Origin: Acutalibacteraceae bacterium
Lineage (GTDB): Bacteria; Bacillota_I; Bacilli_A; RFN20; CAG-449
Reading direction: 5' to 3'
Length of the DNA stretch: 64,000 nt
Assembly (NCBI GenBank): GCA_963610315.1
Contig: CAVDMV010000003.1
Location: 39,146-103,145 of the forward strand
Notes under the pieces: model-generated
Told to the model about the DNA's origin: nothing
Database searches by the model: none
What the model saw: the letters and a program-made list of their open reading frames with translations, nothing else
Part shown: one piece after another, positions 16,658-43,671 of the stretch
Numbering within the stretch: the first letter of the stretch is position 1
How the letters are laid out: every line of letters starts with the position of its first letter
Position numbers and translations under genes: made by a program

Positions 16658-16664
16658 ATTATAA

Positions 16665-21534: not shown

Positions 21535-21560
21535 AAAAGAGAGCTAAGACTCTCTCTTTA
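21535..21560. terminator. bidirectional terminator between maa and gpsA
   Basis: AAGAGAGctaagactCTCTCTT hairpin flanked by an A-run and a T-run. Confidence 0.5.
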
Positions 21561-22548: not shown

Positions 22549-24089
22549 AACTCCTCCTTAATAGATTTTTTTGTCTTGTGTAGATAAATGATCATATCAA
22601 TTACTAATATAATTAAAAATGGAATACTCACACCTAACATATCAATACCGACATCTTTAAATGATGGTCCTCTAGATCCGGCAAATATTTGAATAATTTC
22701 ACTACCTGAAGCAAGAATAAAACTTACTCCAATTGAGATAGGATAAGCGATATATTTCTTTTTAATAAACATTAAATAAGTTAATGTACCAAATAAACTC
22801 ATCGCCATAAATAAACCAAAGTGACCGACTAACTTTCTAACATAATATGAGAAAGTATCTAAATCACGAATATAAGGTTGTCTAGTGACATTTACTTTTA
22901 TTATTTTTTCTAAATGCTTAGAATCATAATCTAACGATATTTTAATATATGTTTCACCTTTTTCTAAAGTACGAATTAAACCATTATTATCAATGACTAA
23001 GATAGATGTATCGCCACTTTCATACTGAATATTTTTATAAGTAGCTTCTTCATTAAAAGAAATATTTAGTAATGCTGAATTTAATACGCTTAAAGATAAG
23101 GTATCATTATCTAATTTATTATTAATAATTATTTCACTAGGAAATACATCAAAAGTTGTTAAACTAGTTTTATATAAAACATTAGATGAACTACGAGAAA
23201 TAACTTCAAGATTTAAATTATCACTTGCTTTATAAATATATAATTTATCATCCTTAACTTCGCCATATTCATTATCAATTTTATAATATAAATCATATTT
23301 GTTTCCGTTAGTAGGTAAGAATGAATAATCTAAATTATAAACTCCATTAACATATAATTTTTCATTAAAAGAAGATAACTTATAAGAAGAAATTGCTTCA
23401 TTCTTCTTTTCACTACCTAACCTAAATTTTAATGTAATATTAATATTATCATTTAAATTAACATCCATTGAAAATTTAGTTATAGAATCGCCTAAATAGA
23501 AGGCACCATATTCATTTACATTAGTTAACGATGAAGTAAATTCTTTTTTATAGATATTAGTATCAGAAACTACATCAATATAATGATATGAAGAAGAACT
23601 GATAGCCATATTTTCAATATATTCATTTCCATCAATATAGATTTTATAATCTTTAATTTCAGGATAAACTACATTGATGTGTTTAACTAATTTAACATCC
23701 TTATTCGCATTAGAAGTAATAGTAATATCACATTCTCCTAAGGAATTAAATTCTAGAGTACCACTAGAAGAAATTGAAGCTACACCATTATCACTGCTAG
23801 AAAAAGATAAGCTCTTATTAGATGCATCACTAGGTAAAACATTTAAATTAAGTGTTACTTTTTCACCAAGATACATCTTATCTAAAGAAGAATTTAATTC
23901 AATATCACTTACATCAATATAAACATTATTTTCTCTAGTAATCTTATTTAAAACGTAAGAAAAAATGTTCACCACTTTATTAGATTCATTACTAGAAACA
24001 TTTCCATTAAACGAAGAATGAACAATAATTAATGTTGAACAAATGATATATAAAGCTAAACAAATGTATTTAAATATCTTCTTTTTCAT
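22545..24089 (-). CDS. secreted/membrane protein with Ig-like extracellular region and C-terminal VanZ-like domain
   Basis: Signal peptide; beta-rich repeats; C-terminal multi-TM region resembling VanZ; 4-nt overlap (ATGA) with gpsA. Confidence 0.55.
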   Translation of the reverse strand: MKKKIFKYICLALYIICSTLIIVHSSFNGNVSSNESNKVVNIFSYVLNKITRENNVYIDVSDIELNSSLDKMYLGEKVTLNLNVLPSDASNKSLSFSSSDNGVASISSSGTLEFNSLGECDITITSNANKDVKLVKHINVVYPEIKDYKIYIDGNEYIENMAISSSSYHYIDVVSDTNIYKKEFTSSLTNVNEYGAFYLGDSITKFSMDVNLNDNINITLKFRLGSEKKNEAISSYKLSSFNEKLYVNGVYNLDYSFLPTNGNKYDLYYKIDNEYGEVKDDKLYIYKASDNLNLEVISRSSSNVLYKTSLTTFDVFPSEIIINNKLDNDTLSLSVLNSALLNISFNEEATYKNIQYESGDTSILVIDNNGLIRTLEKGETYIKISLDYDSKHLEKIIKVNVTRQPYIRDLDTFSYYVRKLVGHFGLFMAMSLFGTLTYLMFIKKKYIAYPISIGVSFILASGSEIIQIFAGSRGPSFKDVGIDMLGVSIPFLIILVIDMIIYLHKTKKSIKEEL

Positions 24090-25101: not shown

Positions 25102-25127
25102 AAAAAAACCTAGGATTACCTAGGTTA
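25102..25127 (-). terminator. Rho-independent terminator at the end of the minus-strand FAS operon
   Basis: AACCTAGGtaatCCTAGGTT followed by TTTTTTT on the minus strand. Confidence 0.7.
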
Positions 25128-25132: not shown

Positions 25133-25957
25133 TTAAATTTGATTATTTTCTTTTGCGAGTAACATTTCTTTTAATTGGATAGAATCTAAGATTAATTTAA
25201 CAAGTTTTTCTAATGGAGAATTAGATTTAAAATCCGATCTACATGCATAGTTAACTCTATTATCTTGTAATAATTGAATAGATATATCCTTTTTATTTTG
25301 AGGATAGACAGCAATTGCAGTTCCACCTTTTTCTTTAACTAAAGTCATCGCAGGAATATCTGTCATTCCGTCACCAATATAAATCATATTTCTAAATTGA
25401 ACATGTTTAGTTTCAATTCTTTGGTTAACAGTTTTATCATCAGAGATATTCATTGCCCCTTTATTAATTCTAAATAAATATTGAGTTTTTAAAGTATAAT
25501 TAACAATGGTCTTTGGCCAATATGCTTCACCATATTGATCATAAAGGAATTCACATCCATAAACTTGTTTGAATTCTTTATAGATTGAACTACCTTCAAT
25601 AATTTCTTTATTACCAGAAGAAATAATATAGTGTTCAACGTTAATACCATGTTCATCACCATATTGATTTATTCTTTTAAACCAGGTAGTAACACCTTCA
25701 TAAAATTTAACATCTTTACCTAAAGAATTTAAATATTCTCTAGTTAATTTAATCTTCTTCTTGTTGCATTCTTCAATCATCACTCTTAAATAAGATAAGA
25801 TTGATTCAACTCCAGTATTCTTTGATAAACTATCAGTTTTACTCCAGAATTCTTCTGGTGTTAAACCTAAATTTGGGATAAAAGAAAATGATTGCATATC
25901 ATTAGTTGCAAGTGTTTTATCAAAGTCATAGCATATTGCGACAGTAATTTTTTCCAT
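25133..25957 (-). CDS. HAD-superfamily hydrolase/phosphatase
   Basis: N-terminal DFDKTL motif and C-terminal IGDGMTDIPAM; 274 aa. Confidence 0.6.
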   Translation of the reverse strand: MEKITVAICYDFDKTLATNDMQSFSFIPNLGLTPEEFWSKTDSLSKNTGVESILSYLRVMIEECNKKKIKLTREYLNSLGKDVKFYEGVTTWFKRINQYGDEHGINVEHYIISSGNKEIIEGSSIYKEFKQVYGCEFLYDQYGEAYWPKTIVNYTLKTQYLFRINKGAMNISDDKTVNQRIETKHVQFRNMIYIGDGMTDIPAMTLVKEKGGTAIAVYPQNKKDISIQLLQDNRVNYACRSDFKSNSPLEKLVKLILDSIQLKEMLLAKENNQI

Positions 25958-26018
25958 AAGTGTCCTCCTAGAAAATTAATTATACTATCTTTTAATAAAA
26001 ATAGCAAATCACGTAATT

Positions 26019-26720
26019 TTAACGATATCTAATCACTGCTTTAGAAGAAATAGAACCATTATTTTTTAAGATGTTAAAGACGATTTGATAATCATCTTCT
26101 TGATAGATAGTAGTTATCTCTTCATCTTCAATAACTTCAGAAATAAAATTAATTTCAAATTCATAAATATCTAAAGAAAGATAATATTCACTCTTTAATG
26201 CATTTAAATAATATCGAACATAACTAACATTATTTAAATGATGTGAATAATCAATATCACTTGAATAGACTTTATGAATTAATTCATTTTGTCTTTCAAT
26301 TTGAGGAATACGAGAATAAATTCTAATTTTTGGAAGTAAACTATCTTCTTTTAAAGAGAGAAATTCTAAAGAAACAGATTCTCTAGTAACATAATTAATT
26401 CCACATATCTCTGTAAACGAAGTAACTACTTCTTCATCATTTAATATAACATTAGTTTCTAAAATAAATGACATGAGATTAACTTTAACTAAATGTACTT
26501 TAAAATCTAAGATATCATTTAATTTAGGCATCTTCTCTATCACAAGTTTATTTCTTAATACTACTAAAATTATGTTATATTGAGGCTTTAAATATTCATT
26601 ATTTAAATGATGTTCTTCTAAATATTCAGTCGTTACATCTTCAATTAAAGAACTTAAAGAGATGAGATTTAATTTAAAAGAAGCATCAACTTCAGAATAT
26701 CTTACTTTAATCTTTTCCAT
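26019..26720 (-). CDS. acyl-ACP thioesterase (FatA-like, double hotdog)
   Basis: N-terminal KVRYSEVD pattern typical of acyl-ACP thioesterases; about 235 aa; start at MEKIK after GGAGG. Confidence 0.65.
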   Translation of the reverse strand: MEKIKVRYSEVDASFKLNLISLSSLIEDVTTEYLEEHHLNNEYLKPQYNIILVVLRNKLVIEKMPKLNDILDFKVHLVKVNLMSFILETNVILNDEEVVTSFTEICGINYVTRESVSLEFLSLKEDSLLPKIRIYSRIPQIERQNELIHKVYSSDIDYSHHLNNVSYVRYYLNALKSEYYLSLDIYEFEINFISEVIEDEEITTIYQEDDYQIVFNILKNNGSISSKAVIRYR

Positions 26721-27423
26721 TAATACCTCCAACTAAACTCTTCTTAATATTAATTTCATTTGAATTAATAATATGTTTTTCATTGTTATTACCTATCACA
26801 ACTAAATAGCCTTCTTTAGTAAAATCAATTACTTTATAAAGATTACCTTCATGAATAATTTCTCTATTCATAATGATATTGTTATTGCGATAAATAACCA
26901 TTAATTCATCAATATTCTTATTTAATAAGTAATCAAATTCAATTAGAACTTCATCTAACAAAGTTAATTTACTAATATTAATAAATTCATTAATTCCAGT
27001 TGCATTAAATTCTTTATTAGCTTTTAAATTGATTCCAATACCGAGAACGATATATTCTAGTTCACTTCCTAAATAAGAAGATTCAGCAAGAATCCCACAT
27101 ATTTTTTGGTCATCTACGTATATATCATTAGGCCATTTAATAAGTGCGTTAATACCATGTTTTCTTAAAACATTCATAATAACTAAAGAAGAAATAATTT
27201 CATAACGAGCGTCTTCTTTAAAAATAAATGAAAATGGTAAGCAATTAGATGAATCCCAAGTATGAGTCATTCTTCCTTTTCCTGCAGTTTGATTATCAGT
27301 ATAAAGAACACTCCTAGAGGTTAACTCAGAGGAGTGTTCTTTTAAATACGTATTTGTAGAATTAACTTCATCGATATAATAAAGATCAAAAGAAGCGACT
27401 TTTTTCTTAAATACGATATCCAT
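26707..27423 (-). CDS. birA: biotin-[acetyl-CoA-carboxylase] ligase, catalytic-only (no HTH domain)
   Basis: QTAGKGRMTHTW motif matches the BirA GRGRRGR biotin-binding loop; 238 aa. Confidence 0.75.
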   Translation of the reverse strand: MDIVFKKKVASFDLYYIDEVNSTNTYLKEHSSELTSRSVLYTDNQTAGKGRMTHTWDSSNCLPFSFIFKEDARYEIISSLVIMNVLRKHGINALIKWPNDIYVDDQKICGILAESSYLGSELEYIVLGIGINLKANKEFNATGINEFINISKLTLLDEVLIEFDYLLNKNIDELMVIYRNNNIIMNREIIHEGNLYKVIDFTKEGYLVVIGNNNEKHIINSNEINIKKSLVGGINGKD

Positions 27424-27424
27424 C

Positions 27425-28330
27425 TTATTTGCCTAATTTTGAAACTATATCTAAATAGCCATTGTAGTCAGAGACATTATAAATAGTCGCGGTAGGACTA
27501 ATCTTTCTAATAAAGCCTGTTAAAGCTTTGCCAGGACCGATTTCAACAAATGTATCAACACCTTGTTCAAGAAGATATTTAACTGAATCTTCAAAATAAA
27601 CGCTGTGACAGATTTGATCTTTTAAAATGTCATTTAATGGACGAGTTTCTTCTTTACCTGATACGTTATAAACAATTCTATAAGTAGGAGTAGCAGGAAC
27701 AAAACGATCTAAAACTTCTTTTAATTCGATTGAAGCATTATTTAATAATGATGAATGGAAAGCACCTGAAACATTTAATGGAATCGCTCTCCTAGCTTTT
27801 GCTTCTAAAAGGAGTTCACAAGCTTTATCAACTGCTTCATTAGTACCAGTAATAACAATTTGTCCTGGACAGTTATAGTTTGCAATTTCTACTACACCAG
27901 TATCAACTTTCTTTAAAGTTTCTAAGATAGTATTTCGATCTAAACCGATAATAGCGGCCATCTTTGTTGTTCCTAAAGGTAAAGCATTTTGCATAATTCT
28001 ACCTCTATTAGAAATAATTTCGATGGCATCTTCAATCTTCCAAGCATTCGCAAAAGCTAAAGCACTATATTCACCTAAAGAAAGTCCGCAGGCAAATTCA
28101 GGAACAATTCCTTTTTCTTCTAATGCCTTTGCAATTGCAAAAGAAGTAAGTAACATTGCTTTTTGAGCGTAAGCAGTTTGATTTAATAATTCATTTTCGT
28201 TGAAACATAAGTCTTTAATTTCAGGGAAAGCATCATAAATCTTTTTTACTAAATCTAAATTTTCATAAAAGTCTTTACCCATTCCAATATATTGGGCGCC
28301 TTGACCTGCAAAACAAAATGCAATTTTCAT
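27425..28330 (-). CDS. fabD: malonyl-CoA:ACP transacylase
   Basis: AGQGAQ and GLSLGEYSA active-site motifs; 301 aa. Confidence 0.9.
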   Translation of the reverse strand: MKIAFCFAGQGAQYIGMGKDFYENLDLVKKIYDAFPEIKDLCFNENELLNQTAYAQKAMLLTSFAIAKALEEKGIVPEFACGLSLGEYSALAFANAWKIEDAIEIISNRGRIMQNALPLGTTKMAAIIGLDRNTILETLKKVDTGVVEIANYNCPGQIVITGTNEAVDKACELLLEAKARRAIPLNVSGAFHSSLLNNASIELKEVLDRFVPATPTYRIVYNVSGKEETRPLNDILKDQICHSVYFEDSVKYLLEQGVDTFVEIGPGKALTGFIRKISPTATIYNVSDYNGYLDIVSKLGK

Positions 28331-28342
28331 AAGTCAACCTTT

Positions 28343-29257
28343 CTAACCGATATTACGGTATTTGTTAAATCTGTTATTTAATAATTCGTCTTTACTTAAT
28401 GCAGTTAATTCATCAAGTTTTGCGACGAGTTTTTCTTTAATTTGATTACCATATTCTTTAGAAATATAAGTAACACCTCCAAGAGGTTCTTTAATTACTT
28501 CATCGATAATTTTAAGTTCTAATAAATCCTTACTAGTCATCTTCATAATTTCGCATACATCTTCAACTTTAACGCTGTTTTTAAATAAAATTGAAGCAAA
28601 TCCTTCAGGTGAAAGAACTGAATATATCGCGTTTTCAAACATGTAAATATAATCTGAAACAGTGAGAGCTAACGCGCCTCCTGATCCTCCTTCAGATAGA
28701 ACAACTGCGATAACTGGTACTTTTAATGAAGCAAATTCCATGAGGTTATTTGCAATCGCGCGAGCTTGGCCTCTTTCTTCTGCCCCTTTTCCTGGATATG
28801 CGCCAGAAGTATCAACAATAGTAATAATAGGGCGATTAAATTTTTCTGCTTGATGCGCGAGTCTTAAAGTTTTTCTAAAACCTTCTGGAGAAGTCATACC
28901 AAAGTTTCTTTTAATATTTTCTTTAGTATTTGTTCCTTTAGCTTCAGCTAGAACTGTAACAGGATATTTACCTAGATAACCAACACCAGCAATAATTGCT
29001 GCATCATCACCATAATATTGATCACCGTGTAATTCATAAAAATCATCAATTAAAGCATTAATTAAAGCTTTCGCTTTAACTCTTTTTTCACTACGAGCGA
29101 TATTTACTCTATCATAAGCACTTAAAGAAGAATAAGTTTCAATTAATAAATTCTTTAATTCTTGCTTTAATTCTTCATATTCTTTATCTTGTGGATCAAG
29201 GTTAACAATTTGCTCTTTTAATTGAGCTATTTTTAATTCATTCTCTTCAAGTATCAT
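28343..29257 (-). CDS. accA: acetyl-CoA carboxylase carboxyltransferase alpha subunit
   Basis: Crotonase-fold CT domain; 304 aa; gene order accD-accA. Confidence 0.9.
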   Translation of the reverse strand: MILEENELKIAQLKEQIVNLDPQDKEYEELKQELKNLLIETYSSLSAYDRVNIARSEKRVKAKALINALIDDFYELHGDQYYGDDAAIIAGVGYLGKYPVTVLAEAKGTNTKENIKRNFGMTSPEGFRKTLRLAHQAEKFNRPIITIVDTSGAYPGKGAEERGQARAIANNLMEFASLKVPVIAVVLSEGGSGGALALTVSDYIYMFENAIYSVLSPEGFASILFKNSVKVEDVCEIMKMTSKDLLELKIIDEVIKEPLGGVTYISKEYGNQIKEKLVAKLDELTALSKDELLNNRFNKYRNIG

Positions 29258-29258
29258 A

Positions 29259-30134
29259 TTATCTATAATTATGAAGTTTTAATAGCTTATAAAGCGTAAC
29301 CTTCATATCCTTTCTTTCAACTATATTATCAATATAACCTTTATCTAAAAGGAATTCTGATGTTTGGAAATCTTTAGGAAGAACTTCTTTAATTGTTGAT
29401 TCAATAACTCTTCTTCCAGCAAAACCAATTAAAGTTTTAGGTTCAGCAAGAGTAATATCGGCAAGAGAAGCAAAAGACGCGCTTACTCCGCCGGTAGTAG
29501 GATCAGTTAAGACTGCAATATAAAGTTCTTTTTCTCTTAATTTACCAACTGCTTGGCTAGTTTTAGCCATTTGGAATAAAGAGATAATCCCTTCTTGCAT
29601 TCTTGCTCCTCCAGAACAAGTAAATAAAATTAAAGGTAAGTGTTCTTTAAGCGCTTTTTCACACATTAATGTAACTTTTTCGCCGCAGACAGAGCCCATA
29701 CTTCCCATCATAAAGAAACTATCCATAACGCCAACTAAGCAAGAGATACCGTTAATTTTACCTTTGACGCAGACAATTGATTCATCAATTTCTGAAGTTT
29801 CTTTAGCCTTAGACAATTTTTCTTCATAAGTAGGGAAATCTAAATGCTTTTCTTCAAGATTAGAAAATATTTCTTCATAACCTTCATCCATAACTTGTTT
29901 TAAGCGTTCTTTAGCGTGTAAACGCGCATGATAACCGCAGTTAGGACATACATATAAAGCATCTTGATATGCTTCAGAAAGTAAAGTTTTTTGACAAGAT
30001 GGGCATTTAACCATTAATCCATCTGGAACTTTAATTGGAGTAGTTTTTTCATCACGTTTTCTAAATTGAAGATCCGCTAGAACGGAATTAAATTCTTTAA
30101 TTTCTTCTTTTCTTTTATCGAATATATCTGGCAT
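29259..30134 (-). CDS. accD: acetyl-CoA carboxylase carboxyltransferase beta subunit
   Basis: N-terminal zinc finger CPSC...CPNCGYH; CT domain; 291 aa. Confidence 0.9.
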   Translation of the reverse strand: MPDIFDKRKEEIKEFNSVLADLQFRKRDEKTTPIKVPDGLMVKCPSCQKTLLSEAYQDALYVCPNCGYHARLHAKERLKQVMDEGYEEIFSNLEEKHLDFPTYEEKLSKAKETSEIDESIVCVKGKINGISCLVGVMDSFFMMGSMGSVCGEKVTLMCEKALKEHLPLILFTCSGGARMQEGIISLFQMAKTSQAVGKLREKELYIAVLTDPTTGGVSASFASLADITLAEPKTLIGFAGRRVIESTIKEVLPKDFQTSEFLLDKGYIDNIVERKDMKVTLYKLLKLHNYR

Positions 30135-31482
30135 TTTGTTCTAGCTCCTTTATCGTTTCATCAACAAAGCCAGTATTAAAGTTTCCTAAAATATACTTTG
30201 GATGATGCATAATCATATAATGGAATTCAGTTGTAGTTGGTACTCCATCAATTAATAATTCTTCTAACGCGACTCTCATTTTTCTAATTGCTTCAAGACG
30301 GTTTTTACCTAATACAACTAATTTTAAAATCATTGAGTCGTAATAAGGAGGAATGACGTATCCTGGGAAAACATGAGTATCTACTCTTACACCATTTCCA
30401 CCAGGTAAATGTAAGAAATTAATTTTACCTGCTTGAGGTCTAAAATCATTTGATACATCTTCAGCATTAATTCTACATTCAATCGCGAAACCATTGAGGT
30501 GAATATCTTCTTGTTTATAAGGAAGTTTCATACCTGCCGCAATCTTAATCATTAATTTAATAATATCTACGCCAGTTACCATTTCTGTAACTGAATGTTC
30601 TACTTGAACTCGAGTATTCATTTCGATGAAATAGAAATTTTCTTTGTCATCAACTAAGAATTCAATAGTACCGACTGAATCATAATTAACAAATTCAACT
30701 GCTTTTAAAGCATTTTCATATAATTTATTCTTTAATTTTTGTGAAATAGATTGGCATGGAGCTTCTTCAAGCATCTTTTGTTTTCTTCTTTGCATTGAGC
30801 AATTTCTTTCGAAAAGATGAATGTAATGGCCGAACTTATCACCAACAACTTGAACTTCGACATGCTTTGGATTTTGTACTAATTTTTCAATATATAATTC
30901 ATCGTTTGCGAAGAATTTCTTTGCTTCTTCTTTAGCTTCTTTATACATATCCGCGAATTTAGCTTCGGATTCGACCATTCGAATACCTTTTCCTCCTCCG
31001 CCGGCACTTGCTTTAATTAATACTGGGAAGCCAATTTCTTTTGCGATGGCTAACCCTTCATCTAACTTAACTGCTTTATAAGAGCCTGGAACAATTTGAA
31101 CACCAGCTTGACGCATTGATTTAATTGCTTCAGATTTATTACCCATTAATTCCATGACTTCTGGACGAGGTCCAATCCAAGTGATACCACATTTTTCAAC
31201 CATTTTGGCAAATAATGGGTTTTCGCTTAAAAAGCCAAAACCAGGATGAATCGCATCACATCCTGTTACACATGCTGCTGAAAGAATTCTTTCCATGTTT
31301 AAATATGAATTGGTAGAATTAGCTTCACCAATACATATTGCTTCATCCGCGATTTTAACATGTAAAGAAGATTTATCCGCGCTTGAATAAATCGCGACTG
31401 TCGCAATTCCCATTTCTTTACAAGCACGAATAATTCTAACTGCAATTTCTCCTCTATTTGCGATTAATACTTTCTTAAACAT
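30115..31482 (-). CDS. accC: biotin carboxylase
   Basis: ATP-grasp; MFKKVLIANRGEIAVRIIRACKEMGI N-terminus near-identical to AccC; 455 aa. Confidence 0.93.
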   Translation of the reverse strand: MFKKVLIANRGEIAVRIIRACKEMGIATVAIYSSADKSSLHVKIADEAICIGEANSTNSYLNMERILSAACVTGCDAIHPGFGFLSENPLFAKMVEKCGITWIGPRPEVMELMGNKSEAIKSMRQAGVQIVPGSYKAVKLDEGLAIAKEIGFPVLIKASAGGGGKGIRMVESEAKFADMYKEAKEEAKKFFANDELYIEKLVQNPKHVEVQVVGDKFGHYIHLFERNCSMQRRKQKMLEEAPCQSISQKLKNKLYENALKAVEFVNYDSVGTIEFLVDDKENFYFIEMNTRVQVEHSVTEMVTGVDIIKLMIKIAAGMKLPYKQEDIHLNGFAIECRINAEDVSNDFRPQAGKINFLHLPGGNGVRVDTHVFPGYVIPPYYDSMILKLVVLGKNRLEAIRKMRVALEELLIDGVPTTTEFHYMIMHHPKYILGNFNTGFVDETIKELEQNARYIR

Positions 31483-31484
31483 AA

Positions 31485-31919
31485 TTAATCACCTATTAAG
31501 AATAATTTTTGATCAAATTCAATTACTCCACCTTCACTTGCATAAATTTCTTTAACAGTTCCGTCTTTTGGTGCAGTAATTTCATTCATAACTTTCATTG
31601 CTTCAATGATACAAAGTTTATCACCTTTTTTAACTTTAGAACCAACTTCAACAAATGGTTTAGCATCTGGATATTGAGCTTGGTGATAAGTACCAACTAA
31701 TGGTGATTTAACAATGTCTTTTTCATTGATAACTTCTTCTTCAGAAGTTGAAGGAGTTACACTTGAAGAATGTTCATTAGGAACTACAAATCCTACTTGA
31801 TTTTCACTCTTTGTTAATTTGATTTTCATATCATCAACTTCAATATCTAAAGATGTAATATTTGCTTTTTCAAACATCTTAACAATCTTTTCAATTTCTT
31901 CAATTTTCATATTAAGCAT
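31485..31919 (-). CDS. accB: biotin carboxyl carrier protein
   Basis: Biotinylation motif EAMKVMN; 144 aa. Confidence 0.88.
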   Translation of the reverse strand: MLNMKIEEIEKIVKMFEKANITSLDIEVDDMKIKLTKSENQVGFVVPNEHSSSVTPSTSEEEVINEKDIVKSPLVGTYHQAQYPDAKPFVEVGSKVKKGDKLCIIEAMKVMNEITAPKDGTVKEIYASEGGVIEFDQKLFLIGD

Positions 31920-32148
31920 TTAACTCCTTTTCTTTTCTTGTAACTAATTTAACTACATCATCAACCGTGATTAATTGTTCCATTTCTTCATATTCGATTT
32001 GAATGGAGAATGCAGTTTCAAGTTCAAGAATCATTTCAACTGCATAAAGGCTATCAATGCCTAAATCTTTTAATTTCGCATCTTTCGTGATTTTTTCTTC
32101 ATCAACATTCGCGCATTCAATTAATAATTGTTTAATTTTTTCAAACAT
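31912..32148 (-). CDS. acyl carrier protein (copy 1)
   Basis: 78 aa, acidic, phosphopantetheine site GIDSL. Confidence 0.8.
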   Translation of the reverse strand: MFEKIKQLLIECANVDEEKITKDAKLKDLGIDSLYAVEMILELETAFSIQIEYEEMEQLITVDDVVKLVTRKEKELNA

Positions 32149-32172
32149 AATAAGCCTCCTATGCTATATTAA

Positions 32173-32913
32173 TTATTTTTTGCCTTTTTCTCTTTCATTA
32201 GTCCAAAAGTTATTTAAGAAAACTTTATAAGCACTAGTAGTAAAAGGTGGTTTTAATAATTTAATTTTGGTTTCTTCACTTAAAGAACCATTTTCGATAA
32301 ATTCTTGACCAGCGAGAATAAACTTTTCTAAGAATTTATCAATTTTATTTTGATTATTTAATTCGACTAAAGTCTTCATTTGAGGAACTAAAATCGCTAA
32401 ATAATTATTTTGACCGCAGATACAATCATATTGTTTTAATAAAGACGTATAAGCTAAATCAGTTTCAGTGTACGCACAAGTAGAAATAACGATAAATTTT
32501 CTATTTGGACGAGGATTTCTAATACCGTGGAAAGACTTTCCATCGCGAGGAGCGATTTGTCCTTCGTAAGTACACATCATCGATAAAAGTCGATCAGTAA
32601 GTACCTTATTAATTCCAGGCATTGAGAAGAAATATAAAGGATAAGAATTAATAACGATATCCGCGTTATCTAATTTTTCTTTAACAGTATTTACATCATC
32701 ATTTTTAATGACGCATTCTCCTGCCGTTCTTCCCCAGCAAGATAAGCAACCTAAACAAGGGGTAATTTTTAAATCAGATACGTTAATAATTTCTATATCT
32801 AAATCATTATTTACATTTAATCCTTTTAAGAAAGCATTAGTTACTACCATTGTAGAACTTCTTTCTTTTTTAGGACTACCATTTAAGACGACAACTTTTT
32901 TCTTAGTTTCCAT
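32173..32913 (-). CDS. iron-sulfur flavoprotein-like NAD(P)H-dependent FMN reductase (flavodoxin fold)
   Basis: VVVLNGSPKK flavodoxin-like N-terminus; compact Cys motif CLGCLSCWGRTAGEC (CX2CX2CX7C) as in Isf proteins; 246 aa; embedded in the FAS operon. Confidence 0.6.
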   Translation of the reverse strand: METKKKVVVLNGSPKKERSSTMVVTNAFLKGLNVNNDLDIEIINVSDLKITPCLGCLSCWGRTAGECVIKNDDVNTVKEKLDNADIVINSYPLYFFSMPGINKVLTDRLLSMMCTYEGQIAPRDGKSFHGIRNPRPNRKFIVISTCAYTETDLAYTSLLKQYDCICGQNNYLAILVPQMKTLVELNNQNKIDKFLEKFILAGQEFIENGSLSEETKIKLLKPPFTTSAYKVFLNNFWTNEREKGKK

Positions 32914-33373
32914 AGATTTGTTCTTTTTTAACAGCAGTAAATGTCATTGTTCCTTTTGAATAGATGACATCATTTACTTTAACAACTGCATCAAAAGTTG
33001 TTAATGGTCCCATTACCTTAGATTTTTTTACATTAATAATTAATGTATCACCAGGAATAACAGGTTTAATAAATTTGAAATTGTCTACTTTTAATAATAC
33101 GTAAATAAGATTTGCATCAGAACCATCAGATTCAATTACGAGTGAACATAATTGAGCACATGATTCAATAATTAATACTCCAGGCATGATTGGATTATCA
33201 GGGAAATGACCCATAAAATAAGGTTCATTTACTGAAACGTTCTTTAATCCAGTCGCTTCAACATTTGGAGTAAGTTCTAAGACCTTTTCAATCATTTGGA
33301 AAGGAGGTCTTTGTTTAATTCTTTTATTTATTTCATTAATGTTCATCATATTATAAAGATAATCCTCCATCAA
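32903..33373 (-). CDS. fabZ: 3-hydroxyacyl-ACP dehydratase
   Basis: Hotdog fold with HFPDNPIMPGVL motif; 156 aa. Confidence 0.85.
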   Translation of the reverse strand: MMEDYLYNMMNINEINKRIKQRPPFQMIEKVLELTPNVEATGLKNVSVNEPYFMGHFPDNPIMPGVLIIESCAQLCSLVIESDGSDANLIYVLLKVDNFKFIKPVIPGDTLIINVKKSKVMGPLTTFDAVVKVNDVIYSKGTMTFTAVKKEQIYGN

Positions 33374-34082
33374 TTGTAATTACTTGTCCAGTAATGTAGC
33401 TTGCTTCATCACTAGCTAAGAAAGAAACTAACGCCGCGATATCTTCAACAACACCTAATCTATGAAGAGGAATGTTCTTTAAATATTCTTCTTTTTTATC
33501 TTCTGGGATATGATCTAACATTTCTGTTTGGATAAATCCAGGAGCGACAGCATTAACTCTAATTCCATAAGGAGAAAGTTCTTTCGCTAAAGTTTGAGTC
33601 ATTGAGTTAACTGCACCTTTAGTTGATGAATATACGCTTTGTCCAGGTAAAGCAAATTTACCTGAGACAGAAGACATATTGATGATGACACCTTTTTTCT
33701 TACGAAGCATTTTTAAAGCTGCTTGTTGAGCACAATAGAAATATCCTTTAACATTTAAATCATAACATGCATCAAGATTTTCTTTTGTCATCATGAGTAA
33801 TAATTCATCTCTAACGATACCAGCATTATTGACTAAAACATCAATTTGTCCGTATGTTTTAGCGATTTCTTTCATCATTTTGCTCGCTTCTTCAAATTTA
33901 GAAACATCAGCTTTATAGATAATTCCATCTCCTCCATTAGCCTTAATTTCATCTAATGTCTTAAGAGCGGATTCATCGCTTCTAGAATAATTAACAACAA
34001 CAAAATAGCCATCCTTAGCAAGTCTAATTGCGCATCCTTTACCGATGCCCTTACTTGCGCCTGTAACAATTGCAACTTTCAT
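33351..34082 (-). CDS. fabG: 3-oxoacyl-ACP reductase (SDR)
   Basis: TGASKGIG cofactor motif, YSSTK catalytic tetrad; 243 aa. Confidence 0.88.
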   Translation of the reverse strand: MKVAIVTGASKGIGKGCAIRLAKDGYFVVVNYSRSDESALKTLDEIKANGGDGIIYKADVSKFEEASKMMKEIAKTYGQIDVLVNNAGIVRDELLLMMTKENLDACYDLNVKGYFYCAQQAALKMLRKKKGVIINMSSVSGKFALPGQSVYSSTKGAVNSMTQTLAKELSPYGIRVNAVAPGFIQTEMLDHIPEDKKEEYLKNIPLHRLGVVEDIAALVSFLASDEASYITGQVITIDGGLSL

Positions 34083-34096
34083 AAAATTCTCCTTTT

Positions 34097-36508
34097 TTAT
34101 TTAGATAAGATAACTGCAGTATATGAACCACCAGATCCATATGCAGTAACTAAGATATGAGATAATCCTTCAGAAGAAAGAGTTTTCTTAGTCATTTTTC
34201 CATTTTCATTTACATAAGCAAAATCATCATGGTCGATTGTATTAGATAATAATAATGATGCTTGAACAACGTTTAACGCTGCAGAAGCTGCTCTACCTTC
34301 ACCAGTTCTAGCTTTTGTTGAAACTACTGGAGTAGTAAAGTTTTCACCAAATACACGTTTATATGAAGAAATTTCTTCATTATCAATAACTTCACATCCA
34401 TTACCGAAACCAACGATAGCATCAATATCACTTACTTTTAATCCTGCGTGATCAAGAGCTTGTTTAATTGCTTCATCAAGAGCTTCGCTAGAATTGGATA
34501 ATGTACCAAAGCTAACATCTTTATGTGTCATACCATAGCCTGAAACATAAGCATATTTTTTCGCACCACGTTTATCTGCATTAGTTTCGCTTTCTAAGAC
34601 GATAGTAATGCCGCCGTCACTAAGGACGAAGCCTTTATTATGAGAATATGGTTCAACATAGCTATCTGCGACATAGCCAAGTGAAGTATATAATTCAGAT
34701 GTAACATTAATATTTTCATCACTACCAGAAGCTAAAATAATATCTTCTTTTCCTTGTTCAATGATGTTCATACCATAAGCAATACTTGCTAAACCTGATT
34801 GAGCACCGTTTGTGATTGTAACGTTATAACCTTTAATCTTTGATTGGATTGATAAGTAACCACCTGCTGCATTATAAACAGTATTTGGGAAGCTAAATGC
34901 GCTGCCATTTGCGTTACCTTTTTCGTAAATATTTTCTTCGAATTCACAACCCATACCAAGAGCGCCTTCAGAAGTACCAACAACAATACCAATACGTGTT
35001 GCATTTTCATCAGTAACTTCTAAGTTAGCATCTTTTAATGCATAAATTCCTGAAGCAACTTCAATAGAAGAAATAACATCGAGTTTTCTATGGAATGACA
35101 TTGGAACACCAACTGGTGCGAATAAGTTAGGAATTGATGTAGCATCAACTTTACGATCTAATACTGATTTGACGTTACCTTCTTTAACAGTTTCATTTGC
35201 GTTAACCTTTGCAATATAGTTTTCAGTACCATTACCTAATGGAGAAACAATACCAAAACCTGTAACGACTACTTTTTCTTTCTTTTCTGGTAAAGTTACA
35301 TTACCAGCATTTTTACTGAAGATAATTGAAGCGTTATTACCACCGAAAGCAAATGAGTTAGACATAACATTTTCTAATTCTTTTTCATGTGCTTTATTTG
35401 GAATAAAGTCAATTTTACCTGCTTTTTCTTTTAATGTGACTAAATCTTCATCACTATAGCCAAGAGTTGCAGGAACTGTATTAGTTGTTAATGCTTTGAT
35501 TGAGAAAACAGCTTCGATCGCGCCAGCTGCACCTAAGCAATGGCCAACCATTGCTTTAGTTGATGAAACACTTAAATTATCTGTTTCTGGATCAAAAATT
35601 GTATGTAATGATAAGAATTCAGCATTATCGTTTTTACCAGTACCTGTACCGTGAGCGTTAATATAACCAATTTCGTTAGCTTTAACACCTGAAGTTTTCA
35701 TCGCCCAACGAATTGCGTTCATTTGTCCTTCACCATCTTCTCTAGGAGCTGTAATGTGATGAGCGTCACTTGATACACCTGAGCCTAAGACTTCACAATA
35801 AATCTTTGCTTTTCTCTTTAATGCATGTTCATAAGATTCAACAACAACAATACCTGAACCTTCACCAAGAGTAATACCTTTACAATGGTTAAATGGTGAA
35901 CATGGATTTGAATCTAATGCATGAAGAGCTAAGAAGCCTGAATAAGGAACGCTAGCAAAAGCATCCGCGCCACCTGCGATAACAATATCAGCTTTACCTG
36001 CTCTAATGAGGTCACAAGCATATGAGATAGAAATAGTACCAGCTGCACATGCGTTTGCAATATTAGTTACAACACCACCTGCGTGGACGTAGCCAGCTAC
36101 TTGAGAAGCAATCGCGCTAATAGGCATTTGCTTAATATCTTTTTTATCTTTGCCGTGTTGATAATAATGTTCAATAGAAACAACGCCGCCAACACATGAA
36201 CCGATGATAACGCTAACTCTAGGATCATCATTAAAATCTTTTAATCCTGCATCAGACATCGCTTCTTTAGTAGCTTTAATACATAATTTAGAAACTCTAT
36301 CCATATATTCTTTTGTTTCAACATCTTTTAAATCATCTTTAACTTCTGCCGCTAATGAAGCATAGCAATCTTTTGTATCAACACTAGTTGTAGTAGCGAT
36401 ACCTGAGACTGATTTTAATGCATTTGACCAACATTCATCAACGCTACTACCAATTGCACTGATTAAACCTAAACCAGTAACAACACAACGTAAATTATTT
36501 TCTGTCAT
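34097..36508 (-). CDS. fused beta-ketoacyl-ACP synthase II (active) plus catalytically inactive KS-like C-terminal domain (CLF-like), 803 aa
   Basis: N-domain has Cys (NACAAG), HGTGT and GHCLGAAG motifs; C-domain starts VVVTGFGIVSPLG but has NGAQSG at the Cys position and lacks both catalytic His. Confidence 0.8.
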   Translation of the reverse strand: MTENNLRCVVTGLGLISAIGSSVDECWSNALKSVSGIATTTSVDTKDCYASLAAEVKDDLKDVETKEYMDRVSKLCIKATKEAMSDAGLKDFNDDPRVSVIIGSCVGGVVSIEHYYQHGKDKKDIKQMPISAIASQVAGYVHAGGVVTNIANACAAGTISISYACDLIRAGKADIVIAGGADAFASVPYSGFLALHALDSNPCSPFNHCKGITLGEGSGIVVVESYEHALKRKAKIYCEVLGSGVSSDAHHITAPREDGEGQMNAIRWAMKTSGVKANEIGYINAHGTGTGKNDNAEFLSLHTIFDPETDNLSVSSTKAMVGHCLGAAGAIEAVFSIKALTTNTVPATLGYSDEDLVTLKEKAGKIDFIPNKAHEKELENVMSNSFAFGGNNASIIFSKNAGNVTLPEKKEKVVVTGFGIVSPLGNGTENYIAKVNANETVKEGNVKSVLDRKVDATSIPNLFAPVGVPMSFHRKLDVISSIEVASGIYALKDANLEVTDENATRIGIVVGTSEGALGMGCEFEENIYEKGNANGSAFSFPNTVYNAAGGYLSIQSKIKGYNVTITNGAQSGLASIAYGMNIIEQGKEDIILASGSDENINVTSELYTSLGYVADSYVEPYSHNKGFVLSDGGITIVLESETNADKRGAKKYAYVSGYGMTHKDVSFGTLSNSSEALDEAIKQALDHAGLKVSDIDAIVGFGNGCEVIDNEEISSYKRVFGENFTTPVVSTKARTGEGRAASAALNVVQASLLLSNTIDHDDFAYVNENGKMTKKTLSSEGLSHILVTAYGSGGSYTAVILSK

Positions 36509-36615
36509 AAAATTCTCCTTTTTTTAAAATTATTCAACCTCTAAATCTAAGATTTAGGGCATATTTTCTTAAAGTCAAAAAAATAGTTGCAAGAATAACT
36601 TGCAACTACCTAAAA

Positions 36616-36861
36616 CTACTTATTTGCGATAATATATGCTGCAAGAGTATCAATGCTTCTGAAGTGTTCTCTAGCAACACCAGTCATTGATAAACCAAAT
36701 TCATCATCAATAAATGAGATAATTTCAATTGAGTCGATTGAGTCTAAACCAATTGAAGTACCTTCAAATAATGGAGTATCGAAATTTAATACACTTGGTT
36801 CAACTCCTAAGTTTTCACAAATGAAATCTTTTAATTTTTGTTTTACTTCTACTTCGTTCAT
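36616..36861 (-). CDS. acyl carrier protein (copy 2)
   Basis: 81 aa; phosphopantetheine attachment site GLDSIDSIE. Confidence 0.7.
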   Translation of the reverse strand: MNEVEVKQKLKDFICENLGVEPSVLNFDTPLFEGTSIGLDSIDSIEIISFIDDEFGLSMTGVAREHFRSIDTLAAYIIANK

Positions 36862-37021
36862 AAAATATCCTTTCTTAATAAACTAAAAAGTATGATTAGC
36901 CTTTTTTCACATTTACAATCATAACACTTAAAAAAAACTTAATCAATAACTTTTCTCTTTAAGAAAGTTAATAACTAGTGAATGAATATATTTTATATAT
37001 TATTATCGATTTAGTAGAAAA

Positions 37022-37333
37022 TTAAGAAATTATTACAATGCTTGTTACTAAGTCTCCTTCATGAGAAATAGAGATACTTATTTCAGGATGATTTAAAACA
37101 TAAGGCTGACCAGAAGGATGTTTTAAAATTGAATATTCAAGATAAAGAGGATCTTGAGTCGCTTTAAAAATTGCTTCTTTAGACGCCCAACGAACAGCTA
37201 AAAAAGTGGACTTAGAATCTTCATTTAATTCATTAAATTCTTCTAACTCCACTTTCGTTAGTATTCGATTTATAAAATTTTCTTTTTTATTTTCAAATCT
37301 AGATATTCTTGTTAAATCAATTCCTACTTGCAT
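37022..37333 (-). CDS. acpS: holo-ACP synthase (4'-phosphopantetheinyl transferase)
   Basis: MQVGIDLTRISRF N-terminus and KEAIFKA motif typical of AcpS; 103 aa. Confidence 0.8.
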   Translation of the reverse strand: MQVGIDLTRISRFENKKENFINRILTKVELEEFNELNEDSKSTFLAVRWASKEAIFKATQDPLYLEYSILKHPSGQPYVLNHPEISISISHEGDLVTSIVIIS

Positions 37334-37375: not shown

Positions 37376-39034
37376 TTATCTAGTTGAATTAACAAATGAG
37401 TCGATATCAACTTTTGTTGTATCGATAGTTGATATTTGTTTTCTTAGTTTTAATACATAAGAAGGTGAAACAGATAATTCATCAATACCTAATGAAACAA
37501 AGAAAGGTAATAATTTTTCATCACGTGCTAATTCACCACATATACCAACAGGAATATTTTTCTTATGGCCATTTTCGATTGTTAATTTGATAAGTCTAAG
37601 AATAGCCTTATGATGTGGATTAAATGTTTTATCTAATAATGGATTAACGCGGTCGATTGCTAAAGTATATTGAGATAAATCATTCGTGCCGATTGAGAAG
37701 AAGTCGACGTGTTCTGCTAGTACATCTGACATAATTGCCGCGGCAGGAGTTTCAATCATAATACCGATTTTCATATCAGGATTAAACTTTTCACCACGAG
37801 AAGTAAGGTTATTTTTCGCTAAAGCACACATTTCTTTAACAAATTCGACTTCGCTTAATGAGATAATCATCGGAATCATAATTGCTAAATTACCATATGC
37901 TGATGCACGATATAAGGCAGTTAATTGGTCTAAGAACATCGCAGGACGATCTTTACAAATTCTAATTGAACGATATCCTAAAGCTGGATTTTCTTCTTCA
38001 GGTAATTCGAAATAATCAACTTTTTTATCCGCGCCGATATCTAAAGTTCTAATAATAACTTCTTTCCCCTTCATTGCTTCAACAACTTTTTTATAATGAA
38101 CAAATTGTTCTTCTTCAGTTGGGTAAGTTTTACTATCTAAATAGATGAATTCAGATCTAAATAAACCGATACCTTCTCCATCATTTTTAATAACATTATC
38201 AACTTCATAACTAGAAGCAATATTAGAATAAATCTTTAATTTTTTACCATCTAATGTTGTCGTTTCTTTGCCTCTTAGAAAGGAAAGTTCTTTTATATCA
38301 TTAAGATAAGATTCTTTGATTTTTGAATATTTAGTAATATCTTTTGAAGTTGGATCAATAATTAGTTTTCCTTTAAGGCCATCAATAATCGCAAATTTGC
38401 CGTTTAAAGAAGCGTCAACATTAAAATCATCAATTGCACAGATAGAAGGAATTTCAAGCATTCTAGTAAGAATGGAAACGTGAGAATTAATGCTTCCTTT
38501 AACTAAAATTAAGCCGATGAGAAGATTCTTATCAAACTTCATAAGTTCACTTGAAGGTAAGTCATCACAGATGATAATTGAAGGTTCTTTTAATAAAGTT
38601 AAATCTTCTTTTTTAGTTAAGACATCAATAATTTTATTACCGACTTCAAGAACATCTCTCGCTCTTTCTTTCATGTAAGCATCGTCCATAGTTTCAAACA
38701 TACTGGATAATTGTTTACTTGCTTCTTTAACCGCCGATTCTGCCGTTAATTTATTGTTTATACCTTCTTTAACTAAATCTTCAAAATCGAGATCTTCCGC
38801 CATAAGTTTATGGGTAAGGAAGAGTTGAGCCTCTTCCTCCCCTAAACGAATTAATGTGTCTTGATAAAGTTTTTCAAATGAAACAATGGTTTTTGCACGA
38901 GCTTCAATGAAACGTTCAGTTTCTTTTTCTTCACCTAAGAATTCATTTTTAGTTTCAGTTTTTATATCTTGGTAAACAACTAGTTTTCCAAGTGCGTATC
39001 CATCAAAGATACGTTTAGATGAATATTCTTTCAT
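37376..39034 (-). CDS. ptsI: phosphoenolpyruvate-protein phosphotransferase (PTS enzyme I)
   Basis: 552 aa; PEP-utilizing enzyme domains including the phospho-His region GSINSHVSIL. Confidence 0.88.
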   Translation of the reverse strand: MKEYSSKRIFDGYALGKLVVYQDIKTETKNEFLGEEKETERFIEARAKTIVSFEKLYQDTLIRLGEEEAQLFLTHKLMAEDLDFEDLVKEGINNKLTAESAVKEASKQLSSMFETMDDAYMKERARDVLEVGNKIIDVLTKKEDLTLLKEPSIIICDDLPSSELMKFDKNLLIGLILVKGSINSHVSILTRMLEIPSICAIDDFNVDASLNGKFAIIDGLKGKLIIDPTSKDITKYSKIKESYLNDIKELSFLRGKETTTLDGKKLKIYSNIASSYEVDNVIKNDGEGIGLFRSEFIYLDSKTYPTEEEQFVHYKKVVEAMKGKEVIIRTLDIGADKKVDYFELPEEENPALGYRSIRICKDRPAMFLDQLTALYRASAYGNLAIMIPMIISLSEVEFVKEMCALAKNNLTSRGEKFNPDMKIGIMIETPAAAIMSDVLAEHVDFFSIGTNDLSQYTLAIDRVNPLLDKTFNPHHKAILRLIKLTIENGHKKNIPVGICGELARDEKLLPFFVSLGIDELSVSPSYVLKLRKQISTIDTTKVDIDSFVNSTR

Positions 39035-39036
39035 AA

Positions 39037-39294: not shown

Positions 39295-39296
39295 AT

Positions 39297-41300: not shown

Positions 41301-41312
41301 GTTACCCTCCTT

Positions 41313-43573: not shown

Positions 43574-43671
43574 GTTTCTAAATTATAGCAAAAGGACCAA
43601 AAAATTAAAATAATTTCTTTCGTTTGATATAATATATCAAATTGACTATAATAAAAAGAAGAGGTGGCCTC

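Follow-up and report, generated by a model that had tools for sequence, protein, structure and literature searches.

The cluster of genes on the minus strand between positions 25133 and 37333 of the DNA analyzed here, a stretch of 64,000 nucleotides (nt) from contig CAVDMV010000003.1 of the assembly GCA_963610315.1 (hereafter, the window), is probably the housekeeping locus for type II fatty acid synthesis (FASII) and acetyl-CoA carboxylase (ACC) of an uncultured, low-G+C, Acholeplasmatales-like bacterium of the gut or rumen, arranged in several transcription units around a five-part core and operating by the mechanism that we propose below. The conserved core is a module typical of the lineage that consists of a divergent acyl carrier protein (ACP2), a fused β-ketoacyl synthase (KS) didomain, FabG, FabZ and a flavoprotein resembling the iron-sulfur flavoprotein Isf. 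The locus is the standard fatty acid synthesis (FAS) locus of a large uncultured clade, and in the loci that we compared the initiation and the enoyl reduction steps are without a recognized enzyme. The Isf-like protein is a well-supported candidate for the enoyl reductase, and the didomain is a plausible candidate for the initiating enzyme. We assign a housekeeping role to this locus because accBCDA, fabD and birA are all contained in the operon, because plsX follows the module and genes for PlsC-like, patatin and DegV proteins adjoin it in relatives, and because genes for tailoring enzymes are missing from it.

Gene identities were derived from the list of open reading frames (ORFs) and from Pfam and NCBIfam scans of the window; the Pfam scan took in the window ORFs of at least 70 amino acids (aa), except a few that overlap longer ORFs. 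Our analysis covers the 64-kb window, whose G+C content is about 30%, and about 20 kb around the locus of each relative. Read from 37333 to 25133, the Pfam and NCBIfam assignments give the order acpS, ACP2, KS didomain, fabG, fabZ, the Isf-like gene, ACP1, accB, accC, accD, accA, fabD, birA, a thioesterase gene and a HAD hydrolase gene, followed by a terminator. This reproduces exactly the gene order of the initial annotation, a sequence-based reading that preceded our study; its view of the cluster as atypical when compared with model Firmicutes was borne out as well, and the lack of fabH, fabT and plsX to which it had drawn attention holds across the 64 kb. Like the canonical fab/acc cluster of Firmicutes, represented in our data by an Oscillospiraceae locus (L028: plsX-fabH-fabK-fabD-fabG-fabF), the window contains a dissociated type II system with fabD, fabG, fabZ, accBCDA and an ACP gene packed on one strand. 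Streptococcal and enterococcal operons have the order fabT-fabH-acpP-fabK-...-accA. Unlike the canonical Firmicute cluster, the window is devoid of FabH, FabK/FabI and FabT, its FabF is replaced by an 803-aa fusion of a KS with a chain-length factor (CLF), and it possesses an extra divergent ACP with its own terminator, the Isf-like flavoprotein, and birA and thioesterase genes within the operon.

We mapped 13 independent related loci (L001 to L009, L084, and L087 to L089), either by tblastn or from gene tables. All of them retain the order ACP2, didomain, fabG, fabZ, with the ACP2 homologue immediately upstream of the didomain, and the Isf-like gene is present in each of the 12 loci that extend far enough. 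Two types of cluster can be discerned. In type A (the window, L003, L004, L087, L089), fabZ is followed by the Isf-like gene, ACP1, accB, accC, accD, accA, fabD and birA, with or without the thioesterase gene; ACP1, accB and accC form a unit that is found only in these Acholeplasmatales-type clusters. In type B (L002, L005, L008, L084, L088), the order is fabZ-fabD-accD-accA and the Isf-like gene lies nearby, either directly after accA (L002, L005, L084, L088) or about 1 kb upstream of ACP2 (L008). The plsX gene directly follows the module in the type B loci L002 and L088, and a gene for an acyl-ACP thioesterase occupies that place in L084; acyl-ACP thioesterase genes were found in L089 and L084/L085. 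Genes for a PlsC-type acyltransferase and a patatin adjoin the module in L084, and a DegV gene does so in L089. In one type B cluster (L084, positions 15428 to 18114, and L085), fabD and accD are separated by an inserted PmbA/TldD pair, and a TetR-family gene, a patatin-like lipase gene and a PlsC-type acyltransferase gene are found just upstream of the ACP gene.

A much more distant counterpart was recovered from a Thermodesulfobacteriota metagenome-assembled genome (MAG), where a KS and CLF-like pair (L062:588-4078; 33% and 25% identity) is accompanied on the opposite strand by an adjacent Isf-like gene with 27% identity and the same CxxCxxCW...GxC motif. Given the two rearranged cluster types and this distant locus, the linkage between KS/CLF and the Isf-like gene has therefore survived rearrangement, and to judge from the latter locus, the link between KS/CLF and the flavoprotein reaches beyond the Firmicutes. 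A similar KS pair in candidate division FCPU426 (L069) has no Isf-like gene within 10 kb. With regard to the question whether an identical organization is standard in well-studied relatives, we find that the core is indeed standard throughout a large clade, but this clade itself is uncultured and unstudied.

The absence of familiar FASII enzymes was assessed in several ways. Searches by tblastn with reference proteins from control loci, in which the positive controls worked, gave no match to FabH, FabK or PlsX in the 64-kb window, and among the window ORFs scanned there was no Pfam match to ACP_syn_III, NMO, FA_synthesis, MarR (FabT-like), DegV or an extra short-chain dehydrogenase/reductase (SDR). 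The locus provides malonyl-CoA supply and loading (AccABCD and FabD), FabG and FabZ. A known enoyl-ACP reductase was not found at the locus: there is no FabK homologue, the sole SDR of the cluster is FabG, and neither NMO nor a further adh_short match occurs among the window ORFs scanned. The set of loci used for comparison stems from a scan of genome contigs with patterns common to all FabF proteins, in which about 11 of 80 loci contained the didomain and the other 69 served as negative controls. An Isf-like gene was present in 17 didomain loci and in none of the 69 ordinary FabF loci, FabH in none of 20 didomain loci as opposed to 37 of the 69 ordinary ones, and FabK in none of 20 as opposed to 6 of 69; these counts include closely related loci and hence do not represent independent events.

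The Isf-like protein (246 aa; 32173-32913, minus strand) is a predicted Fe-S/FMN protein of the flavodoxin fold, with matches to PF03358 (53.3 bits, above the cut-off of 24) and PF02525 (51.3 bits); its gene overlaps the stop codon of fabZ by 11 nt. None of the NCBIfam families reached its cut-off for this protein. Residues C52, C55, C58, C66, W59, Y115, H128, R131 and C145 are invariant across the family, and the spacing C52-X2-C55-X2-C58-X7-C66 is invariant in 65 homologues. This stretch fits the compact motif CX2CX2CX4-7C, which we take, from the Isf protein of Methanosarcina, to be that of a [4Fe-4S] cluster, and such a cluster is putatively present in the window protein. The AF2 model (pLDDT 94) has the fold of FMN azoreductases, NQO and WrbA (TM about 0.55-0.6), with a Foldseek probability of 1.00 to FMN azoreductases and NQO. 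At the sequence level, the best match in the PDB is the flavone reductase FLR (7D38; E = 2e-5 with a single sequence and 1e-10 with a profile), and the cysteine stretch lies within the aligned region. FLR 7D38 was not among the top 50 structural matches of the Isf-like protein, and solved Isf structures were found neither among the listed sequence matches (E ≤ 0.01) nor among these top 50 structural matches.

FLR is an FMN-dependent ene-reductase of a new class that hydrogenates carbon-carbon double bonds conjugated to a carbonyl group and makes no direct use of NAD(P)H (PMC7862272). In common with FLR (PDB 7D38-7D3B), Isf and the FMN_red family, the window protein has a flavodoxin/WrbA-like fold and the CxxCxxC...C stretch, and the chemistry of FLR on a double bond conjugated to a carbonyl is that needed by an enoyl reductase. 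A protein of this kind can therefore carry out an enoyl-type reduction. Unlike the Isf-like protein, FLR comprises 310 aa, possesses a different C-terminal domain and acts on free flavones rather than on ACP thioesters, and the shared region amounts to about 80 residues. We nevertheless propose the Isf-like protein, on the basis of its genomic context, as a candidate enoyl-ACP reductase because it would fill the sole catalytic position of the elongation cycle that is left vacant, because its gene overlaps with fabZ, and because its nearest solved relative is an ene-reductase. Our literature search retrieved nothing on an enoyl reductase of the Isf type. The literature on the "Fe-S flavoenzyme" was considered as a parallel and set aside, as it concerns the unrelated Old Yellow Enzyme/2,4-dienoyl-CoA reductase class.

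The second unusual member of the core, the fused KS didomain of 803 aa (34097-36508, minus strand), consists of two ketoacyl-synt/Ketoacyl-synt_C pairs according to Pfam. Its N-terminal half carries an intact catalytic triad (C153, H285, H322) and is 40% identical to the FabF protein of Bacillus subtilis. In the C-terminal half, by contrast, the position of the catalytic Cys is taken by Ala, Ser, Asn or Pro in all 13 homologues, the first His is replaced by an invariant Phe and the second by an invariant Glu; an invariant Gln (Q569) is found at Cys+1 when the C-terminal half is aligned against its own N-terminal half and two FabF proteins. By these residues, the didomain is a fusion of an intact FabF-like half with a presumably catalytically dead, CLF-like half, and the view of the initial annotation that the KS is a didomain of the KS-CLF type was thus well founded. 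We also considered the C-terminal half as a true KSQ domain, in which Gln stands at the Cys position, and rejected this assignment because the Gln is displaced to Cys+1 and both His residues, which are needed for the decarboxylation chemistry of a KS, have been lost. Against the FabF model TIGR03150 (cut-off 493.75), the whole protein scores 519.8 bits, and it passes only as the sum of its halves. Both halves fit FabF models best in NCBIfam and in sequence searches of the PDB; for the C-terminal half, the KS subunit of the actinorhodin (act) synthase (1tqy_A) ranks below FabF and FabB entries, and the best 60 PDB matches do not include the act CLF subunit.

In the AlphaFold (AF2) model of the didomain (pTM 0.90, 802 residues), the two halves are predicted to pack as a pseudo-heterodimer that resembles a KS dimer. 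The sole full-length structural match is the KS-CLF didomain of PfaC (6RIW; E = 2e-49, TMq 0.77), a part of a bacterial polyunsaturated fatty acid (PUFA) synthase (Santin et al. 2020, as cited in PMC9702510). Like PfaC, the window protein is a single polypeptide in which an active KS precedes an inactive "chain length factor" that resembles a KS. Unlike PfaC, with which it shares 17% sequence identity, it is free-standing within a dissociated FASII system, and both of its halves are closest to FabF. The setting of PfaC itself is a megasynthase with dehydratase (DH) domains, tandem ACPs, a FabK-like enoyl reductase (ER), PfaD, and a phosphopantetheinyl transferase (PPTase) of the Sfp type. None of the hallmarks of a Pfa megasynthase that we looked for (tandem ACPs, a FabA-like DH, a PfaD-type ER, an Sfp-type PPTase) is found at the locus: all partners are discrete FASII-type proteins, and the nearby PPTase is of the AcpS type with 103 aa. 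With the KS-alpha/KS-beta pair of type II polyketide synthases (PKS), exemplified by the actinorhodin proteins (1TQY), the didomain has in common an active KS with a partner that lacks the catalytic Cys, a conserved Gln nearby and a dedicated adjoining ACP; unlike the actinorhodin pair, the two KS units are fused rather than separate, and cyclases or aromatases are missing.

The family of fused KS-KS' proteins of about 800 aa is large. Among the best 150 representatives (clustered at 50%), about two thirds are of this size and can be aligned over their full length, and only about ten clusters have an identity of at least 45% to the window didomain. Its relatives number in the hundreds, and the named ones are MAGs assigned to Acholeplasmatales/Anaeroplasma and MAGs labeled Clostridia, Christensenella, Lachnospiraceae or Oscillospiraceae. 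No match named Acholeplasma laidlawii, a cultured relative with documented de novo synthesis of saturated fatty acids, occurs among the best 120 relatives of the didomain, and the literature search likewise yielded nothing relevant on this organism; nor did it retrieve anything on primary FAS with a KS fused to a CLF. A precomputed match to PF08545, the FabH-type ACP_syn_III family, is on record for some homologues of the didomain that have the normal length (P0014, P0021, P0023 and others); it may reflect weak cross-matching among members of the thiolase-fold superfamily and not a fusion with FabH.

Three ACPs are encoded in the window, as the initial annotation had stated: ACP2 (36616-36861, minus strand; motif GLDSIDSIE), ACP1 (31912-32148, minus strand; LGIDSLYAVE), whose gene overlaps the start of accB by 8 nt, and the stand-alone ACP3 (48117-48341, minus strand; LGLDSLDVVD), a genuine PP-binding protein with a DSL serine that is followed by two tRNA genes at 47881-48036. 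All three possess the phosphopantetheine-accepting serine in a DS(L/I) context, and their pairwise identity is only about 20-38%. ACP2 is the divergent one, with 38.4 bits to PF00550 and 33 bits against a cut-off of 66 in the NCBIfam AcpP models, below all of them; ACP1 is AcpP-like (43 bits to PF00550; 63.6 bits to NF002150, below its cut-off of 66), as is ACP3 (37.3 bits to PF00550; 45 bits to TIGR00517, below its cut-off of 70.45). A homologue search with the short ACP2 protein gave 11 matches and was uninformative. Since an ACP2 homologue is found directly 5' of the didomain in each of the 13 loci, ACP2 appears to be a conserved partner dedicated to the KS didomain, which supports the earlier notion that the KS-CLF enzyme has a carrier of its own. 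With a terminator of its own, ACP2 is probably produced in considerable excess over the enzymes, as would befit a main carrier. More than one ACP in ordinary membrane-lipid metabolism reportedly has a precedent in the two-ACP system of lactic acid bacteria, AcpA and AcpB of Enterococcus faecalis; in contrast to that system, three ACPs are present here and none of them adjoins plsX.

These features lend themselves to a coherent model for fatty acid synthesis at this locus. Judging from the gene assignments, ACC would produce malonyl-CoA and FabD would load it onto ACP. The didomain is predicted to operate as an intramolecular pseudo-heterodimer whose N-terminal half performs all condensations, and because FabH is not present, we propose that the didomain also takes care of priming, by decarboxylating malonyl-ACP to acetyl-ACP. 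FabG and FabZ would have their customary roles. Reduction of trans-2-enoyl-ACP would then fall to the Isf-like flavoprotein, whose gene is coupled in translation to fabZ, as suggested by synteny and by its nearest solved relative, and its electron donor may be of the ferredoxin type rather than NAD(P)H. At the end of the cycle, the acyl-ACP thioesterase would free the fatty acid for re-activation; because thioesterase and PlsX fill the same terminal slot in different clusters, they would seem to be alternative exits. Acyl-ACP might hence be converted either directly into acyl-phosphate or into the free acid, upon which a fatty-acid kinase would act. Such a thioesterase bypass of PlsX, from acyl-ACP thioesterase through fatty-acid kinase to acyl-phosphate, is said to operate in Streptococcus pneumoniae. 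No gene for a fatty-acid kinase was detected by Pfam among the window ORFs scanned.

Several observations weigh against the interpretation that we favor. ACP1, ACP2 and ACP3 all pass the Pfam PP-binding model, yet each remains below the NCBIfam AcpP cut-offs, and the N-terminal half of the didomain alone reaches 359 bits against the TIGR03150 cut-off of 493.75, so that neither half passes singly. A decarboxylase role for the C-terminal half is doubtful to judge from its residues, and the Gln of the actinorhodin CLF presumably sits exactly at the Cys position, as opposed to Cys+1 here. The match between the Isf-like protein and FLR is limited to residues ~34-116, and its structural neighbors are azo- and quinone reductases rather than enoyl reductases. 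Finally, a gene for FabH or for FabI, FabK, FabL or FabV could be located elsewhere in the genome.

Some of these observations are embodied in an alternative explanation that we consider rather unlikely, namely, that the cluster is a housekeeping FAS locus in which enoyl reduction is not the task of the Isf-like protein. Instead, this protein would be a redox accessory, such as an electron carrier or a stress or quinone reductase, or a FabX-like enzyme for unsaturated fatty acids, and the genes for FabH and for a conventional enoyl-ACP reductase would reside in other parts of the genome. Unlinked fabI genes are indeed common in Firmicutes, for instance in Bacillus and Staphylococcus. The proximity in structure to azoreductases, NQO and WrbA, the lack of an NCBIfam family at its cut-off and the fact that the analysis covered only a fraction of each genome all speak in favor of such a role, as does the precedent of FabX, an FMN and [4Fe-4S] enzyme of unsaturated fatty acid synthesis in Helicobacter pylori (PMC8626469). 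This alternative is nonetheless at odds with the strict linkage of the Isf-like gene and the didomain across two rearranged cluster types and even in the Thermodesulfobacteriota locus, and with the overlap between the Isf-like gene and fabZ. Moreover, no other reductase candidate is present in any of the clusters, whereas fabK is contained in the canonical clusters of the Clostridia type from this data set.

The initial annotation had envisioned a pathway for free or specialized fatty acids. In such a specialized pathway, dedicated carriers would serve the production of free or unusual fatty acids, or of a polyketide- or polyene-like lipid, apart from membrane-lipid synthesis. One can point here to a KS-CLF-type enzyme with an adjoining divergent ACP, a terminal thioesterase and three ACPs within 64 kb, to the PfaC-like architecture, and to weak NCBIfam similarity of several components to AmcF, AmcE and AmcB of cispentacin and to FlxB of flexirubin biosynthesis. 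However, the scores of the models for secondary metabolism are far below their cut-offs and are surpassed by those of the FabF, FabZ and FabG models. The operon itself contains all four ACC subunits together with FabD and BirA, of which no second copy occurs in the window, and in relatives PlsX, PlsC-like and DegV genes are attached to the same module, with PlsX following it. A cyclase, an aromatase, a methyltransferase, an Sfp-type PPTase or another tailoring gene was not found at the locus. The named matches include Acholeplasmatales/Anaeroplasma MAGs, and one relative is situated on a 1.69-Mb contig (contig_2463 of ERZ4963561); lineages of the Acholeplasmatales/Anaeroplasma type have small genomes and are unlikely to keep two synthases. 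Taken together, these data render a specialized pathway highly improbable and speak against this part of the initial annotation.

The cluster had also been viewed as one super-operon, and this view did not withstand closer inspection. A strong intrinsic terminator is predicted directly after ACP2 (36581-36611, minus strand; a 13-bp stem followed by U7, -17.7 kcal/mol, z = -5.9, with none of 200 shuffles as good). An equivalent hairpin with a U-run is found in the ACP2-KS gap of six relatives (L001, L003, L004, L005, L087, L089), and because it has been kept there in differing sequences, it bears the signature of a functional element. Promoter-like sites precede ACP2 (36918-36946, minus strand; TTGATT-17-TG-TATGAT with an extended -10, in the 160-nt acpS-ACP2 gap), a hit of the consensus scan that is weak by itself, and the HAD gene (25979-26007, minus strand; TTGCTA-17-TATAAT, near-consensus with 10/12 matches, in the 61-nt thioesterase-HAD gap). 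The terminator after ACP2 and the promoter-like site in front of the HAD gene had both been overlooked in the initial annotation. From the KS gene to the thioesterase gene, neighboring genes overlap or are no more than 24 nt apart. The end of the cluster is marked by another predicted intrinsic terminator (25107-25126, minus strand; hairpin and U-run, -11.2 kcal/mol, z = -3.4), in agreement with the earlier report of a terminator at this place.

Because of the ACP2 terminator, the promoter-like sites and the tight packing from the KS gene to the thioesterase gene, we favor several transcription units over a single one. The first would be acpS, read through from the fructose phosphotransferase system (PTS) genes; the second, a monocistronic ACP2 transcript with its strong terminator, or an attenuated acpS-ACP2 transcript; the third, a compact operon of 13 genes that begins with the KS didomain and ends with the thioesterase; and the fourth, the HAD gene, probably with its own promoter and at least partly independent. 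The stretch that separates the ACP2 terminator from the KS start contains a perfect 8-1-8 palindrome, CTAAATCT-A-AGATTTAG (36541-36557), which overlaps a weak promoter-like stretch (TTGACT...) and may be an operator for some regulator. An obvious counterpart was not found in the ACP2-KS gaps of the relatives. We rejected the palindrome as a repeated operator, since only one perfect copy occurs in the window and the other match has two mismatches, which is at the level of chance. The Rfam scan gave no RNA element inside or adjoining the FAS cluster.

Upstream, the cluster abuts ptsI (37376-39034, minus strand), the last gene of a fruR-fruK-fruA-ptsH-ptsI block (37376-42965; Pfam PEP-utilizers, HPr, EIIABC, PfkB and DeoR). 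The 42-nt gap between ptsI and acpS was confirmed; RNA folding predicts it to be unstructured and without a hairpin, and the fructose-PTS block is the likely source of acpS transcription. The proposal of the initial annotation that the cluster is co-transcribed with the fructose PTS is thus plausible for acpS and perhaps for ACP2, but the enzyme genes should be shielded by the ACP2 terminator. That the entire stretch from fruR to the HAD gene is a single super-operon, coupling lipid synthesis to sugar uptake, is most improbable: all genes are on the same strand, the ptsI-acpS gap is short and free of a hairpin, and the acpS-ACP2 gap contains no predicted terminator, but a strong terminator follows ACP2 and is kept in relatives without upstream PTS genes, the PTS-acpS neighborhood is missing from L084 and L087-L089, and promoter-like sites precede ACP2 and the HAD gene.

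The gene acpS codes for a holo-ACP synthase of 103 aa (37022-37333, minus strand; PF01648 56.5 bits; TIGR00556 66.8 bits, above the cut-off of 45.35) and is not found upstream of the cluster in L084, L087, L088 and L089. At the other end, the HAD-IB hydrolase (25133-25957, minus strand) has weak matches to PF06888, PF12710 and TIGR01488/9, all below cut-off. Among the loci compared, only those of the same species as the window have acpS and the HAD gene at these positions (for HAD, L081-L083). The HAD hydrolase is accordingly not a conserved member of the cluster, and an operon led by acpS and finished by a phosphatase, which had been read as a designed arrangement, does not find a counterpart in relatives beyond the same species.

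The remaining cluster enzymes are likewise encoded on the minus strand. FabG (33351-34082) scores 284.9 bits with TIGR01830 and 234.5 bits with NF009466 (above 222), FabZ (32903-33373) 132.7 bits with NF000582 (above 113), and FabD (27425-28330) 278.6 bits with TIGR00128 (above 260.9); gene callers start fabZ at an ATG, which yields a protein of 148 aa. The four ACC subunits are recognized by Pfam as Biotin_lipoyl (AccB, 31485-31919), CPSase_L_D2/Biotin_carb (AccC, 30115-31482), Carboxyl_trans with Zn_ribbon_ACC (AccD, 29259-30134) and ACCA (AccA, 28343-29257). BirA (26707-27423) consists of the catalytic domain only, lacks the helix-turn-helix and aligns from about residue 75 of the bifunctional BirA models (TIGR00121 128.7 bits, above 83.1). 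The acyl-ACP thioesterase (26019-26732) matches PF20791 with 34.4 bits and PF01643 with 27.9 bits, both above their cut-offs.

A few observations concern the remainder of the window. The gene gpsA, for the glycerol-3-phosphate dehydrogenase at the entry to phospholipid synthesis, overlaps that of a 514-aa Big_2/VanZ protein (21544-24089, minus strand); a distance of 1 kb, which includes upp on the other strand, separates this pair from the end of the FAS cluster. At 53141-57383 (minus strand), a gene for a 990-aa BcrAD_BadFG/DUF2229 "CoA enzyme activase" fusion is followed by an overlapping 426-aa ORF without a Pfam match, a pair that resembles a system like the activase of 2-hydroxyacyl-CoA dehydratases. 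A GGDEF diguanylate cyclase of 605 aa (9958-11775) and a DUF1508-containing protein of 411 aa (19344-20579) are encoded on the minus strand, and ORFs of 440-590 aa without any Pfam match are present at 693-2324, 7231-8574, 11870-13210 and 43642-45408. A purine riboswitch (62243-62343, minus strand; 75 bits versus a gathering score of 37) is positioned directly 5' of the GMP synthase gene guaA (60512-62050), which it probably controls, and downstream of a xanthine/uracil permease gene (62411-63895).

In current databases, the flavoprotein is called "flavodoxin family protein" or "WrbA", and the didomain "beta-ketoacyl synthase family protein"; with such generic names, metabolic reconstructions of these MAGs would score fatty acid synthesis as incomplete. 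Our data allow the tentative proposal that a large uncultured clade of gut and rumen Firmicutes (Acholeplasmatales-like, with some MAGs labeled Clostridia) runs a variant of FASII that possesses both a new class of FMN/[4Fe-4S] enoyl-ACP reductase of about 245 aa with a flavodoxin fold, possibly driven by ferredoxin, and a free-standing, PfaC-like FabF-CLF fusion that with its own ACP performs initiation and elongation without FabH. Enoyl-ACP reductase is the FASII step with the greatest diversity of enzymes (FabI, FabL, FabK, FabV) and a target of drugs such as triclosan and FabI-specific antibiotics. If the proposal is correct, the existence of an Fe-S/flavodoxin-type reductase class in abundant gut anaerobes would change predictions as to which commensals are spared by such drugs, and lipid synthesis would gain a step that is possibly linked to ferredoxin. 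Likewise, a FASII system that dispenses with FabH and relies on a fused KS/CLF would provide a natural model for initiation and chain-length control without a β-ketoacyl-ACP synthase III (KAS III), and it would link primary FASII to the architectures of PUFA synthases and type II PKS.

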